Origin: Nanobdellota archaeon
GTDB lineage: Archaea; Nanobdellota; Nanobdellia; Woesearchaeales; GW2011-AR9
DNA length: 49,081 bases
Direction of reading: 5' to 3'
Assembly: GCA_038046425.1 (NCBI GenBank)
Contig: JBBSWG010000014.1
Coordinates: 1-49,081 of the forward strand
Positions 8,440-39,643 of the stretch are shown here, one piece after another; position 1 is the first letter of the stretch, and the number at the start of each line of letters is the position of its first letter. The translations under genes were made by a program, and so were the position numbers. The notes below the pieces were generated by a model. It saw only the letters and a program-made list of their open reading frames with translations, was not told the DNA's origin and made no database searches.

Positions 8440-8470
8440 AGAATGATATGGAAGAGAAGATTCCGTGAAC

Positions 8471-9121
8471 ATGAGTGAGACCATGATTTCCGAAAAGATT
8501 ACTTTACGGGACGCCCAGGAAAGCGAATACTTCCCGGGAGAAGATGAACCGAGTTATCTCTTTACTTCCAGCCAGCGGAAAGTAGTTAGGTGTAATATCT
8601 TTGCCACCATCATTGGCAAGGAAGAAGTGGGAAATATTACTAACCTTATTCTTGATGATGGGACGGCTCAGCTGGTGTTGCGTTCATTTGAGCCGACTTC
8701 ACGGGTACGGGCGTTACAGCTGGGAGAAGTTATCGCGGTAATGGGGCGAGTGCGGGTTTATAATGGGGAACGCTACCTCTCGCCTGAAATAGTGAAAAAG
8801 ATACCTTCGCTCTGGCTGAAAGTGCGCCAGCTGGAATTAGCTCAGCGGAAGCAGCAGGAGTCTCAGGAAGAACCAAAGATTGAACAAGAACTCATAGAAT
8901 CGGAATTAGGGACTGAAGAGCAAAAAGAAGAGCTGAAAGCTGAAGGGTGCGTTGAAGAATTGGTTATTAAAACAGTTAGAGAGAGAGATCAAGGCATCGG
9001 GATGGCTGTGGAAGAGCTGTTGGAATTGTTTCCAGAAGGGCAGACGGAACTGCTCATCGAGAAGATGCAACGGGAGGGTTTACTATTTCAGAATTTGCCG
9101 GGGAGGGTGAAAGTATTGTAA
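8471..9121 (+). CDS. RPA32/Stn1-like OB-fold protein with a C-terminal winged-helix-like domain
   Basis: An OB-like core (VVRCNIFATIIGKEE...VMGRVRVYNGERYLSPE), an acidic linker and a C-terminal wH-like segment. It lies immediately downstream of mcm. GTG 8465 is an alternative start. Confidence 0.5.
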   Translation: MSETMISEKITLRDAQESEYFPGEDEPSYLFTSSQRKVVRCNIFATIIGKEEVGNITNLILDDGTAQLVLRSFEPTSRVRALQLGEVIAVMGRVRVYNGERYLSPEIVKKIPSLWLKVRQLELAQRKQQESQEEPKIEQELIESELGTEEQKEELKAEGCVEELVIKTVRERDQGIGMAVEELLELFPEGQTELLIEKMQREGLLFQNLPGRVKVL

Positions 9122-9137
9122 TTATGGTTGAAATTGT

Positions 9138-9229
9138 AACTGAAACTTTTGCATTTTTATCTAATCTAGGCAAAAGTTTCGAGCCTGCACTTTTGCCATT
9201 TATACCTAAAACGCAAAAGTGCAGGTAAC
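9138..9229 (+). repeat. double-hairpin repeat, family H copy 1
   Basis: Hairpin 1 pairs GAAACTTTTGC (9142-9152) with GCAAAAGTTTC (9170-9180). Hairpin 2 pairs CCTGCACTTTTGC (9184-9196) with GCAAAAGTGCAGG (9213-9225). It is homologous, in inverted orientation, to 34155-34258. Confidence 0.8.
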
Positions 9230-9253: not shown

Positions 9254-10108
9254 TTAGGTAAACAACAACGGCGTAATATACACTTCTGTAATTGCTGCCA
9301 CTACCAGTAATCCCAGACTGATAAACACTAGATCCAGCACATCAATGAGTAATTGGTCTTTGTTAAGGTTATGTTTAATCACGGCGATGGAGACAATCCC
9401 GCCGGCCAGCCCCATCACAAAATAGGCGGCAATTTCAAAGACACCGTGGGTCATGTAACGAAAAAAGCCAAAAGCAGTGGCATTAAAATAGGAAGCGAAG
9501 TTTATGAGTCCTGCTGCCGCTGCAGTTTGAGCAATTTCTTTCTTGACCACCGCGCCGATGGCCGTGGCGATGACCGAAGCATTCCAAGTGAGGATGAAAA
9601 TAGCACCAGTGCCATACAATAGGCTAAAAATCAGGCAGAAGAACAAAACTTTAATGTTATTGACGAGAATACGGACAAAAACATCAAAGCGAGTAATCCC
9701 CCCAGTTAGCATGCCACGAATGTTATCATTAACATTGAGAATAGCCCGCTCTTGTAGGTTAAACACGCTGGAAACAATGGTGGAAGGGAAGAAGATATAA
9801 ACAAGTGCAAAAGTGATGGTTATCCCAAAGAAGAGGAAAAGCAAGTAGCTTAACACTTTACCATGTTCTTTCAGTAATCGTGATTCTTTCGTGTAGCGCA
9901 GATCAAGCTTTTCCTCATTCTGGATAGTAATATAAAATAAAGGTAGTACCGCCATAACTATAAGAAAAACCATAAGAATACCTGCTACCTCTTTAAACAC
10001 AAAATAGGAGAGAATAAGCCCGACTAAAGTGTAGATCGCACCGGCAATAAACATCTCCCAGGGCTTCTTTTTCACTTTAAATGGATTAAATAGCGCTTCA
10101 AGAACCAT
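9254..10108 (-). CDS. SpoIIM-like (DUF95) integral membrane protein
   Basis: 284 aa, multi-TM, with a pattern reminiscent of the stage II sporulation protein M family (NNIKVLFFCL...GTGAIFIL.WN, THGVFEIAAYF). Confidence 0.5.
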   Translation of the reverse strand: MVLEALFNPFKVKKKPWEMFIAGAIYTLVGLILSYFVFKEVAGILMVFLIVMAVLPLFYITIQNEEKLDLRYTKESRLLKEHGKVLSYLLFLFFGITITFALVYIFFPSTIVSSVFNLQERAILNVNDNIRGMLTGGITRFDVFVRILVNNIKVLFFCLIFSLLYGTGAIFILTWNASVIATAIGAVVKKEIAQTAAAAGLINFASYFNATAFGFFRYMTHGVFEIAAYFVMGLAGGIVSIAVIKHNLNKDQLLIDVLDLVFISLGLLVVAAITEVYITPLLFT

Positions 10109-27312: not shown

Positions 27313-27431
27313 GAATTTTGCGCAGGAAAATTCTCGGGTGGGGGAACGGGGTGGAGAATTCAATTGCCCATAACAAAGGTTATTCAAAACCTCCTATCCT
27401 TTCACCCCGGCCAGCTTCACTTCTTTGATGA

Positions 27432-30961: not shown

Positions 30962-31618
30962 TTATCCTTTCACCCCCACCACCATCTCTCCATACGCGCT
31001 TAATTCCGCGGGTATATTTATTTTTCGCAGGAGAGTATTCTGAAATCCGGAATCACTCACCACCATCCCTCCCCCGGCCAGCTTCTCCACAATGTTCTGC
31101 TCATAATCTGGATGTGGCTCTTTCATGATCCGAAAGGCCCGCTCAAAATAAAGATTAAAATGGGGTAAAGAAGAAGGCAACGTCGAAATAATTTCAAAAA
31201 TATTTCCTTCCCGGCAGGTGAGGGTAACCAGAATTTCTTTCCAGTAGAAAGAAAGGGCTTTCCGTTCTTCTCCATCCCGTTCTTTTCCAGGTTCTTCTCC
31301 GAAGGACAAACCGGCATCGTCCAGAATAGTCCTGATGGCTTCCTGGACGGGGTAAAGGTCAACGAATAACAAGTTAGCTTTCTCCAGCTTAGGAAAAAGG
31401 TGTTCAAGGTAATATAATGGCCAGAAAAGGTCGGCTCCCGAGCCGGGATAGAGTACCGAGACTTCTTTATTTGGAAAGTTTGGCAACTGTTTTAACCATG
31501 ATAACTTTTCCCACTCATCCTGGAAGAAAAATTGCTTGATTTTTTCTCCATCGTGCTTATTTGTACGCAATCCTTGCGGCGGGACTTTTCGCGGGATGAG
31601 GGAAATGAGGTTGTTCAT
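30962..31618 (-). CDS. hypothetical protein, possibly a Rossmann/SAM-methyltransferase-like fold
   Basis: 218 aa. YPGSGADLF followed by LLFVDLYP resembles methyltransferase motifs I and II. This is weak evidence. Confidence 0.4.
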   Translation of the reverse strand: MNNLISLIPRKVPPQGLRTNKHDGEKIKQFFFQDEWEKLSWLKQLPNFPNKEVSVLYPGSGADLFWPLYYLEHLFPKLEKANLLFVDLYPVQEAIRTILDDAGLSFGEEPGKERDGEERKALSFYWKEILVTLTCREGNIFEIISTLPSSLPHFNLYFERAFRIMKEPHPDYEQNIVEKLAGGGMVVSDSGFQNTLLRKINIPAELSAYGEMVVGVKG

Positions 31619-31712
31619 AGAGGGTTTTGAATGAACTGTATTTTTATTATGTGGAATACGCCGCTGCTAACGTCGCCTCAAGACCCTCCAGTGAGGGGAG
31701 GCTAAGGTCTAA
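31619..31712 (+). repeat. intergenic repeat, family C copy 1
   Basis: AGAGGGTTTTGAAT...GTGGAATACGCCGCTGCTAACGTCGCCTCAAGACCCTCCAGTGAGGGGAGGC aligns by eye with 39404-39497, and partly with the reverse complement of 41265-41331. Confidence 0.7.
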
Positions 31713-33308: not shown

Positions 33309-34091
33309 ATGGTCTATGTTAATGAACTACGGCATCTGAACCTGAAATCAGCGGAATTGGAGAGCTCAACACTCATCCGCGAGCTGAAGGAAAAAGTAAC
33401 CTATCCCCTGACTGTGGAAAAGCTGCAGGGCCAGCTGGCAGAACTGCTGCTTTCTGAGACGGATAAAGAGATGATGCTACATGCCTTCCATCTGCTGCAG
33501 CCGACGATCGAAGAGCTGATGAGCTTATTGACGGATCAATCTTCCCGGTATGAGGAAATAAACCTGCAGCGGGCCTTGACGATCTTAAATGAGCTGCTGG
33601 TGCCCTTGAATAAAAACATTGATTATGCTGAAGAAATCCTCAATTGGCAGGAAAACTGGATTGCCCAGACTATTCCCGTTCTTAACAGCATTCCCCGTAG
33701 TAAAACCGGGGAGGAGAAAGCTGCCTGGAACCGGCATTTCAGTGATTTCTTTGAGAAGGTGTTGCGGAACGGCGAGTTTAGCTTTAATTATCATGATCTG
33801 GTCAATGAGGCGCATCGGGACCATATTCGGGGCCTCGACGAGGGCATGGGAAAAGGCTTTCTCCTGCGCATCACCCTAGAGGAAGAGCTTAAGAAAGTTA
33901 ACTACGAAACGCTGAAAGCGCGCCTAGCTCCGGAAACTGTGGAGTTCCTGGAACATGTTCGGGGGAATGTGGAAGTGATCAAGAGGGGCGTGGAACGGTC
34001 TTATCAGGCTAATATGCGGATGGTGCAGTGGACATTAGTGATGTATGCGTATATTAAATGGTTGACGAATCCTTGGGAGAAGTTTCGGTGA
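33309..34091 (+). CDS. hypothetical all-helical protein
   Basis: ATG 33309 lies 2 nt after the stop of the zinc-ribbon gene, so the two are probably co-transcribed. About 260 aa with no recognisable motif. The track start at 33264 overlaps the upstream gene. Confidence 0.55.
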   Translation: MVYVNELRHLNLKSAELESSTLIRELKEKVTYPLTVEKLQGQLAELLLSETDKEMMLHAFHLLQPTIEELMSLLTDQSSRYEEINLQRALTILNELLVPLNKNIDYAEEILNWQENWIAQTIPVLNSIPRSKTGEEKAAWNRHFSDFFEKVLRNGEFSFNYHDLVNEAHRDHIRGLDEGMGKGFLLRITLEEELKKVNYETLKARLAPETVEFLEHVRGNVEVIKRGVERSYQANMRMVQWTLVMYAYIKWLTNPWEKFR

Positions 34092-34337
34092 AGCAGAGGA
34101 CGGCGCCGGCGGGCTCGCCGACGCGGGCTACCGTTCCCGTTGCTTAGCGTCGCTTCCGGAACCTGCACTTTTGCGTTTTATGGTAAGTGTATACATTAGC
34201 AAAAGTGCAGGTTCGGAACTTTTGCCTAGATTAGATAAAACTGCAAAAGTTCCGGAAACAAGCAGGCGTCGGATAGACGGACGAATCTCTGTAACCACCA
34301 CCGCTCGCCCGCCTCTTTGGCGGCCGTCCACTGCTTC
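34089..34337. repeat. GC-rich long palindromic element hosting family H copy 2
   Basis: The outer arm GAAGCAGAGGACGGCGCC (34089-34106) pairs with GGCGGCCGTCCACTGCTTC (34319-34337). The element begins on the stop codon of the upstream CDS. Confidence 0.6.
34155..34258 (-). repeat. double-hairpin repeat, family H copy 2
   Basis: ACCTGCACTTTTGC (34161-34174) pairs with GCAAAAGTGCAGGT (34199-34212). GGAACTTTTGC (34215-34225) pairs with GCAAAAGTTCC (34243-34253). It is the reverse complement of copy 1, including the 17-nt loop of one hairpin. Confidence 0.8.
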
Positions 34338-34401: not shown

Positions 34402-34551
34402 GCACCTGTAGCCAAATCCGGCAAGGCAATCGCCTGCAGTGGATTGCTGTGGTGAGCAATCGCGATGACCAGAAGACAGCGATCACTTGTGGGTTCAAAT
34501 ATTCAAGAGGAAAACACTTAACCTCCTGAAGCGGAAATCCCACCAGGTGCT
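34402..34551 (+). tRNA. tRNA-Cys (anticodon GCA) with two introns
   Basis: Perfect acceptor stem GCACCTG/CAGGTGC with discriminator T73, the Cys identity base. Anticodon stem ATCGC/GCGAT with loop CTGCAG|A (anticodon at 34436-34438). T-arm GTGGG/CCCAC with TTCAAAT. Intron 1 is about 34440-34477 (37/38). Intron 2 is about 34501-34538, in or next to the T-loop. Confidence 0.75.
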
Positions 34552-39415: not shown

Positions 39416-39497
39416 ATAGATCGTGCTTTTCTACGTGAAGTACGTCGATTTCAACGTCGCCTCAAAACCCTCCAGCGTGGGGTACGAGGTTTCTGTT
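39404..39497 (+). repeat. intergenic repeat, family C copy 2
   Basis: AGAGGGTTTTGAAT...GTGAAGTACGTCGATTTCAACGTCGCCTCAAAACCCTCCAGCGTGGGG. It starts inside the last codons of the upstream CDS. Confidence 0.7.
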
Positions 39498-39643
39498 AAA
39501 CCCGCTTCTATTAATTATTCCGTTAATTGTCCAGATAGTACCCACTAATTACTATTTCCCTCACCCCGCGCCAGGAATTTTTCTGCACAAAATTTTCTAA
39601 ATCCACAACCTATTTAAACCCATCTCTTTCCTAAACCGTTACC

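Follow-up and report, generated by a model that had tools for sequence, protein, structure and literature searches.

The window analyzed here is a whole stretch of 49,081 nt from a Nanobdellota archaeon (Woesearchaeales; GW2011-AR9; assembly GCA_038046425.1, contig JBBSWG010000014.1, positions 1-49,081, plus strand). It carries two copies of a small element composed of two adjacent hairpins, each built on the cores CTTTTGC and GCAAAAG. We conclude, with a probability of about 0.8, that this is a mobile DNA repeat of Woesearchaeota-type DPANN archaea, non-coding and non-autonomous, resembling MITEs (miniature inverted-repeat transposable elements) but with unusual hairpin ends. The hairpin pair moves as a single unit, from 5 nt before the first core to 6 nt past the last core, and each insertion leaves a 4-bp duplication of the target, which is A/T-rich and of weak specificity. 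The window copies are mobile repeats and not a locus-specific RNA gene, terminator or operator, and they are not known to serve the host.

The window belongs to contig C14 of the archaeon's own genome (G000; 1.12 Mb in 76 contigs, 46.6% GC) and encodes archaeal MCM and Cdc6/Orc1, with copy 1 lying between the two. Copy 1 (9138-9229, plus strand) reads AACT-GAAACTTTTGC-ATTTTTATCTAATCTAG-GCAAAAGTTTC-GAG-CCTGCACTTTTGC-CATTTATACCTAAAAC-GCAAAAGTGCAGG-TAAC. Copy 2 (34155-34258) is an inverted copy that contains both hairpins in reversed order, with hairpin A as GGAACTTTTGC...GCAAAAGTTCC and a longer B loop; the order hairpin A to hairpin B defines the orientation of the element throughout. A first-pass annotation of the window had described two hairpins on CTTTTGC/GCAAAAG at each locus, a near-identical 17-nt A loop, a paired change in the A stem and a position of copy 1 between convergent genes, all of which are present; the hairpins are perfect. 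The A loops (ATTTTTATCTAATCTAG in copy 1, AGTTTTATCTAATCTAG in copy 2) differ at a single position, and the A stem pairs GAAAC with GTTTC in the first copy, GGAAC with GTTCC in the second. The annotation placed copy 1 at the right locus but drew it slightly wide, as the element proper occupies 9141-9225 with TAAC on each side. Folding as single-stranded DNA gave two hairpins for both copies on either strand (-25.8 to -28 kcal/mol; z -7.1 to -9.0 against shuffles). The window contains 14 instances of the half-site GCAAAAGT, where 2.8 would be expected, and 0 of 100 shuffles reached this count. Eight of these sites lie within the two loci, to which the half-sites had been thought to be confined; six more are found elsewhere, isolated and non-hairpin-forming (6756, 9807, 12516, 19861, 47597 and 48968).

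Evidence for mobility comes from the insertion sites. When copy 2 was excised in silico, the joined flanks aligned end to end with at least eight uninterrupted paralogs of the repeat that hosts it (G000 contigs C66:15451-15602, C45:9617-9768, C38:7047-7202, C14:51009-51159, C6:1657-1798, C1, C12 and C2), for example at 92% identity over 152 nt with the C66 paralog. The empty site reads ...CGCTTCC-GGAA-CAGGC..., and the filled site ...CGCTTCC-GGAA-[CCTGCAC...AAAGTTCC]-GGAA-ACAAGC.... Copy 2 thus has an exact empty site; it entered the host palindrome at the apex and is flanked by a duplication of 4 bp. Comparison of contig C24 with C36 and C53 places the element at two different positions of another repeat family, GAGGGTTTTGAAT...TCAAAACCCTC. 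In G001 (archaeon isolate nzgw59, same genus as G000), the convergent genes around copy 1 are conserved, and the spacer between them is 28 nt long and without the element.

Target-site duplication was assessed at every distinct insertion site recoverable from six genomes (n = 29) by comparing the 4-mer 5 nt upstream of the first CTTTTGC with the 4-mer 6 nt downstream of the last GCAAAAG, alongside ten control offsets. The two 4-mers were identical at 25 of the 29 sites, with one mismatch at two sites and a larger difference at the other two, whereas the control offsets gave 1/290. Perfect duplications took 18 different forms (AACC five times, CATC three times, TAAC, TAAG, TAAT, TTTT, ACTT and others). 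Because the flanking 4-mers vary between sites, they represent duplicated target and not element sequence. By visual inspection of the copies, the duplication is not matched by the bases that separate the two hairpins.

The family is a dispersed, non-coding repeat of 82-110 bp that consists of two adjacent hairpins only. G000 holds six full copies (two on C14, and those at C24:4062-4144, C59:18299-18404, C36 and C53) and three solo or truncated copies (C13, C6 and C51). The C36 and C53 copies represent one insertion inside a duplicated host repeat, and a core change in their hairpin B is compensated (CTTTTGT...ACAAAA). Among 40 other genomes searched as relatives, clear matches were found in two, G001 and G005 (another genus of the same family), both among the 24 genomes of the archaeon's own family; two weaker matches (E 0.002 and 0.01) span just 18-29 nt. 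Matches number at least about 10 in G001 and 4 in G005, and about 20 copies are present in G274, the metagenome-assembled genome (MAG) CAZGZA01. Further carriers are G275 (MAG JACPID01), MAG CAYHXI01 (L046) and about 12 metagenome contigs; beyond G001, the archaeal MAGs with the element number at least four. An exact-pattern scan, blind to variants with changed cores, of 250 genomes sampled evenly across the order counted 10 hairpins in G000 and 0-4 in the others, mostly single sites unlike the family. A scan of viral contigs gave no matches to the element. Copies occur in both orientations, in gene spacers, behind stop codons, near tRNA genes and inside other repeats.

The repeats that surround these copies are numerous in their own right. 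The GC-rich palindromic repeat that took copy 2 at its TTCC-GGAA apex has at least ten copies in G000. The GAGGGTTTTGAAT...GTGAAGTRCGTCG...TCAAAACCCTC-CAGCG-GAGGGG repeat, host to two independent double-hairpin insertions, gives more than 30 BLAST matches in G000, including sites in the window (27372-27397, 31617-31698 and 39427-39516) and on C24:3960-4215, C36, C53, C21, C40, C20 and other contigs; the 3' strand of its long-range stem can pair instead with a downstream GAGGG. Two double-hairpin copies of G274, L146 (C2:42910-43041) and L147 (C6:23547-23679), are themselves invaded by a small palindrome, TGTCATAAAAGC...GCTTTTTGACA, which makes a third level of nesting. At C51:9339-9560 of G000, beside the truncated copy, lie two tandem GTGAAAAGAATGCGGGGGACGTGATTCGAACACGCGTACCCACTAAG units (reverse complement of a tRNA 3' half) with different sequence after each; these may be intron-rich or duplicated tRNA genes. 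A pattern scan of genome contigs returned mostly chance bacterial matches together with unrelated repeats on CTTTTGC/GCAAAAG palindromes from two bacterial MAGs, the Clostridiales MAG JAAYBB01 (L021, L025, L030, L039 and L098) and the Parabeggiatoa MAG QNEL01 (L038, L041, L054, L072 and L089; e.g., AAAACTTTTGCGTGGAAATCAGTTTCAGGCAAAAGTTT arrays).

In the aligned copies, the cores CTTTTGC and GCAAAAG, two of each per copy and next to the loops, are almost invariant. Conserved loop sequence stands beside the outer arms (RTTTT in loop A, AAAAC in loop B), so that the outer arms make up an inverted repeat of ~12-13 bp, (A)CTTTTGC-RTTTT, which is subterminal, 5-6 nt inside each end. The hairpin A loop has TAG at its inner end; all else is variable, including the 5-6 bp outside each core. 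These extensions are kept complementary in many forms, among them CGAAA/TTTCG, CGGAA/TTCCG, CTGCA/TGCAG, CTACA/TGTAG, CTAAA/TTTAG, GTTAA/TTAAC, GTAAA/TTTAC, CTGAA/TTCAG, TTGAA/TTCAA and CTAAC/GTTAG.

In a set of 26 distinct copies, 94.9% of the cells of the two-hairpin fold are paired, and two-sided changes affect nine pairs (70 cells). The covariation score is 0.270 versus 0.072 when shuffled (0 of 500 shuffles reach it), and slid partners score at most 0.04. A rival fold that joins outer to outer and inner to inner arm shows no covariation (0.027 versus 0.038), and extensions pair at 269 of 310 cells within hairpins versus 86/155 and 82/155 between hairpins. Core changes are compensated too, as with GTTTTGC/GCAAAAC in hairpin B of G005 and G275. 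With at least ten fully complementary forms of the outer 5-6 bp among the 26 copies, which come from six genomes, the proposal of selection on the hairpin in place of neutral decay is supported in form and extends beyond the two window copies. Judged from the aligned copies, pairing itself is what is kept in the extensions; the A and B extensions differ within one copy, and a protein reading the extension sequence is therefore unlikely.

Table 1. Positions of the two element copies and associated features in the window.
Feature	Position	Strand	Basis or remark
Copy 1, left target-site duplication, TAAC	9137..9140	+	Repeated at 9226-9229; this offset gives perfect repeats in 25/29 sites
Element copy 1 (85 bp), A-to-B on +	9141..9225	+	Sequence; fold; missing from the G001 orthologous spacer
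Copy 1, hairpin A: GAAACTTTTGC (9142-9152), 17-nt loop, GCAAAAGTTTC (9170-9180)	9142..9180	+	Sequence; fold; covariation helix 1
Copy 1, hairpin B: CCTGCACTTTTGC (9184-9196), 16-nt loop, GCAAAAGTGCAGG (9213-9225)	9184..9225	+	Sequence; fold; covariation helix 2
Copy 1, right target-site duplication, TAAC	9226..9229	+	Sequence
Copy 2, left target-site duplication, GGAA	34158..34161	+	Uninterrupted paralogs read CTTCC-GGAA-CAGG, with GGAA once
Copy 2 of the element, A-to-B on -	34162..34253 (34254 if the terminal C is counted)	-	Sequence; fold; empty site
Copy 2, right target-site duplication, GGAA	34254..34257	+	Alternative boundary: GAAA at 34255-34258, one mismatch
Host repeat of copy 2, GC-rich, palindromic, ~150 bp without the insert	34089..34337	.	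Joined flanks align with at least 8 paralogs that have no insert
Convergent open reading frame (ORF) upstream of copy 1	8465..9121	+	G001 ortholog aligns as far as the stop codon
Convergent ORF downstream of copy 1, membrane protein	9254..10108	-	ORF call; context
Probable multi-intron tRNA-Cys(GCA) downstream of copy 2	34402..34551	+	Acceptor GCACCTG/CAGGTGC; T-loop GGGTTCAAAT

The first-pass annotation also placed copy 2 upstream of a tRNA-Cys gene, which was not confirmed. ARAGORN and Rfam detect no tRNA at all in the unspliced window, whereas ARAGORN calls tRNA-Cys(GCA) once two segments of ~36-38 nt are cut from the interval, in a permissive brute-force test. A tRNA-Cys gene at this position is plausible and consistent with the multi-intron tRNAs of G000. 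ARAGORN with introns allowed finds only six tRNAs in the 1.12 Mb of G000, five of them intron-bearing, and most tRNA genes of this genome appear to be interrupted at several sites and missed by standard finders.

Five carrier genomes (G000, G001, G005, G274 and G275) were searched for the moving enzyme with the Pfam profiles PF01609, PF07282, PF13546, PF00665, PF01797 and PF03050. With a cutoff of E <= 0.01, none of the five matched Y1/RAYT (PF01797), and the TnpB zinc-ribbon (PF07282) and DDE_5 (PF13546) were absent from all five; control genomes were positive in both the Y1/RAYT and TnpB searches. The rve genes that were found are without ACTTTTGC ends, and the IS66 of G274 has GTAATAC-type ends. 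No pairs of outer arms 0.6-3 kb apart occur in the five genomes, where the search recovered only elements of ~120 nt that carry nested inserts, plus a composite of ~400 bp, and no distant right end lies within 5 kb at 42 metagenome loci. The composite is found in G001 and retains the outer arms alone, CTTTTGCGTTTTTTGGCAC...GTGCCAAAAAACGCAAAAG, around an unrelated GC-rich structured interior, at three sites: L144 (C4:17000-17400), L145 (C32:14870-15260) and L182 (C8, contig end). One of these has a 4-bp duplication, GTTG, and the combination of outer arms only with a duplication suggests that the outer arms are needed for movement. A target cut with a 4-bp stagger is in line with an enzyme of the DDE or a similar type and argues against HUH-type single-strand transposition. 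The partner enzyme may simply be unassembled, the MAGs being fragmented. Outside the window, at G000 C14:56835-58395, lies an apparently intact insertion sequence (IS) with a 486-codon DDE_Tnp_1 frame; the inverted repeats of this IS start with CAGGCCGTCCCATAATTC and show no relation to the double hairpin.

Several observations weigh against assigning the element to a MITE-like mobile repeat. No tested transposase family is common to all five carriers, and no autonomous partner was found among them; DDE_Tnp_1, rve and IS66 genes are present in some carriers, with ends unrelated to ACTTTTGC. Perfect duplication is missing at 4 of the 29 sites. The terminal 5-6 nt are unconserved and are not mutual inverted repeats (55% of cells pair between the ends, with no covariation), and termini of this kind are atypical for DDE transposon ends. 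The hairpin-A extension of G001 (CTCGA...CCTCG) is not complementary, and pairing outside the core is therefore not obligatory. The copies are related, so the shuffle statistics overstate independence; as copies in one genome are close kin, independent compensatory events are far fewer than the cell counts. Lastly, every genome used is a fragmented MAG, with a completeness of 85-96% for the carriers where known.

The covariation has a second possible, though less likely, explanation. Complementary changes may have arisen unselected, from intrastrand template switching in a quasi-palindrome or from a palindromic founder for each subfamily. The copies of one genome mostly have a single stem haplotype per hairpin in common, CTAAA/TTTAG and GTTAA/TTAAC, for instance, occurring 10 times each, and these shared haplotypes put the number of independent compensatory events far below the 70 cells; the unpaired A extension tolerated by G001 also agrees with this account. 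It fits less well with the complementary extension haplotypes, at least ten of which sit on one core across six genomes and metagenome contigs, and with compensated changes in the core itself, from CTTTTGC/GCAAAAG to GTTTTGC/GCAAAAC and to CTTTTGT/ACAAAAG. Both mechanisms would still need a DNA hairpin, and would modify the interpretation as a MITE-like mobile repeat without replacing it.

Movement by an HUH tyrosine transposase is improbable. By this account a RAYT or TnpA-Y1 enzyme would move single-stranded DNA hairpins by peel-and-paste, and the element would resemble the bacterial repetitive extragenic palindromic (REP) sequences, bacterial interspersed mosaic elements and REP doublets (REPINs) that accompany RAYT transposases (PMC3116915; 10.1101/2021.07.10.451892), or would derive from IS200/IS605 as a palindrome-associated transposable element (PATE). 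The likeness to REP and REPIN sequences is considerable: these are ~100-bp doublets of short inverted palindromes, extragenic and dispersed, with a conserved core, a variable spacer and compensated stems, and the element likewise has two hairpins in inverted arrangement, each having GTTTT at the outer side of its loop. IS200/IS605 ends and PATEs share with it a likeness between the hairpins close to either end, which lie on one strand, and their termini need not be inverted repeats, in line with the unconserved termini seen here; the entry of copy 2 into the apex of another palindrome also suits such a mechanism. IS200/IS605-type insertion occurs 3' of a fixed tetra- or pentanucleotide without duplication, whereas the 4-mers that flank the element vary and are duplicated, at 25 of 29 sites; the duplication also sets the element apart from REP/REPIN sequences, which insert without one. 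The absence of Y1_Tnp (TnpA-Y1 or RAYT) and of TnpB from the five carriers, set against the positive controls, the low copy number (6-20 per genome) and the lack of a GTAG or CGTC head (read off the alignment, with no dedicated scan) point the same way. REPINs have been reported as undetected in archaea (10.1101/2021.07.10.451892).

It is very improbable that the copies are structured RNA genes or cis-acting RNA (a terminator, transcript stabilizer or processing signal) with hairpins selected as RNA, despite the high stability and covariation of the hairpins and the presence of copies in spacers, behind stop codons and near tRNA genes. Rfam gave no match at the gathering threshold in the window, and around copy 2 only chance-level miRNA-like matches at E <= 10. 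Mismatches on the A-to-B strand comprise 6 G:T and 13 A:C (6 and 7 without the unpaired G001 A extension); these counts lack strand bias and therefore give no indication of strand-specific wobble tolerance or of RNA selection. The element is missing at the orthologous locus in G001 and patchy in relatives, and it occurs in both orientations and nested in other repeats. With its 4-bp duplications and exact empty sites, it is a mobile repeat, and the stable ~90-nt RNA, bidirectional terminator and locus-specific protein site envisaged by the first-pass annotation found no support, although a few copies may have been put to secondary use as RNA elements.

A host DNA-binding protein, such as a regulator or chromatin protein, acting on ACTTTTGC-N-GCAAAAGT palindromes would give the copies a host function, with spread merely seeding the sites. 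Four nearly invariant 7-8-bp half-sites per element across genera, amid otherwise variable sequence, and one truncated copy directly upstream of a tRNA promoter are what such a protein might leave, but transposase recognition explains the core invariance equally well. Position is conserved neither relative to genes nor between genomes, copies are found in the spacers of convergent genes as well as within other repeats, and most relatives have no copy, which implies no need for a conserved host factor; we regard this explanation as very improbable. Two narrower candidates were rejected. Loops as promoters fail because the TATA-like TTTATA of G000 loops is not conserved in other genomes, and origin-recognition boxes (suggested by the place of copy 1 between MCM and Cdc6/Orc1) because the element is dispersed and mobile. 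Bulge-helix-bulge introns are not indicated either: no copy lies inside a tRNA or rRNA gene and no bulge-helix-bulge motif is present.

Among known systems, prokaryotic MITEs are short, non-coding, multi-copy and intergenic, duplicate their target site, have arms in inverted repeat, fold into a stable hairpin, are present or absent between close relatives and nest in other repeats, as does the element. Its size is under about 500 bp, it codes for nothing, and it shows dispersed copies, presence/absence and a fixed-length target duplication. The likeness in terminal inverted repeats is partial, as the 12-13-bp inverted repeat is subterminal, 5-6 nt inside the ends. In place of one long pair of terminal inverted repeats there are two separate hairpins with their own covarying stems, and no parent IS with matching ends was found in the five fragmented carrier MAGs (four transposase Pfam families inspected). 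The archaeal MITEs listed in reviews comprise only Sulfolobus SM1-SM4 and those of Halobacterium, Haloquadratum and a few others (PMC10969869), and a bulk survey noted high MITE density in a Woesearchaeal genome, with families not described (PMC11602168). In the literature searched, no description of the two-hairpin family was found, and it is a new MITE-like family.

Mitochondrial double-hairpin elements (DHEs) of fungi and other eukaryotes were reportedly described in Allomyces by Paquin, Laforest and Lang in 2000. DHEs are likewise small, mobile, non-coding units of two adjacent hairpins and are not known to have an enzyme assigned; they differ in residing in organelle genomes and in their unrelated sequence. 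The term DHE recurs in PMC4478555 and PMC5910586.

Taken as a MITE-like mobile repeat, the element is predicted to have its ACTTTTGC cores recognized by protein, probably by transposition machinery. An enzyme acting in trans would bind these cores and cut the target with a 4-bp stagger. The donor cut would probably be set by distance from the core or by the hairpin foot and not by terminal sequence, because the terminal bases are unconserved. Pairing may be kept at the DNA level, as a hairpin or cruciform, either because competence for transposition is under selection or because one arm serves as the template for correcting the other.

An invariant 7-bp core repeated four times, together with stems that covary within hairpins but not between the ends, is unusual for transposon ends and suggests that the enzyme recognizes shape together with a short core. 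A novel transposition system that recognizes a short core within a DNA hairpin or cruciform, and cuts a fixed distance away regardless of the termini with a 4-bp stagger, often in palindromes, is a speculative and rather unlikely extension of this idea. If true, archaea would have a counterpart of REPIN-RAYT that works by a different chemistry. The ACTTTTGC hairpins, with cuts 5-6 nt outside the core, offer bait for the enzyme. Ultra-small DPANN genomes are expected to be streamlined, and despite this expectation G000 is full of non-coding repeats nested in one another. Elements of this kind look like structured RNAs with compensatory changes; in DPANN MAGs they should be masked ahead of any search for RNA genes.

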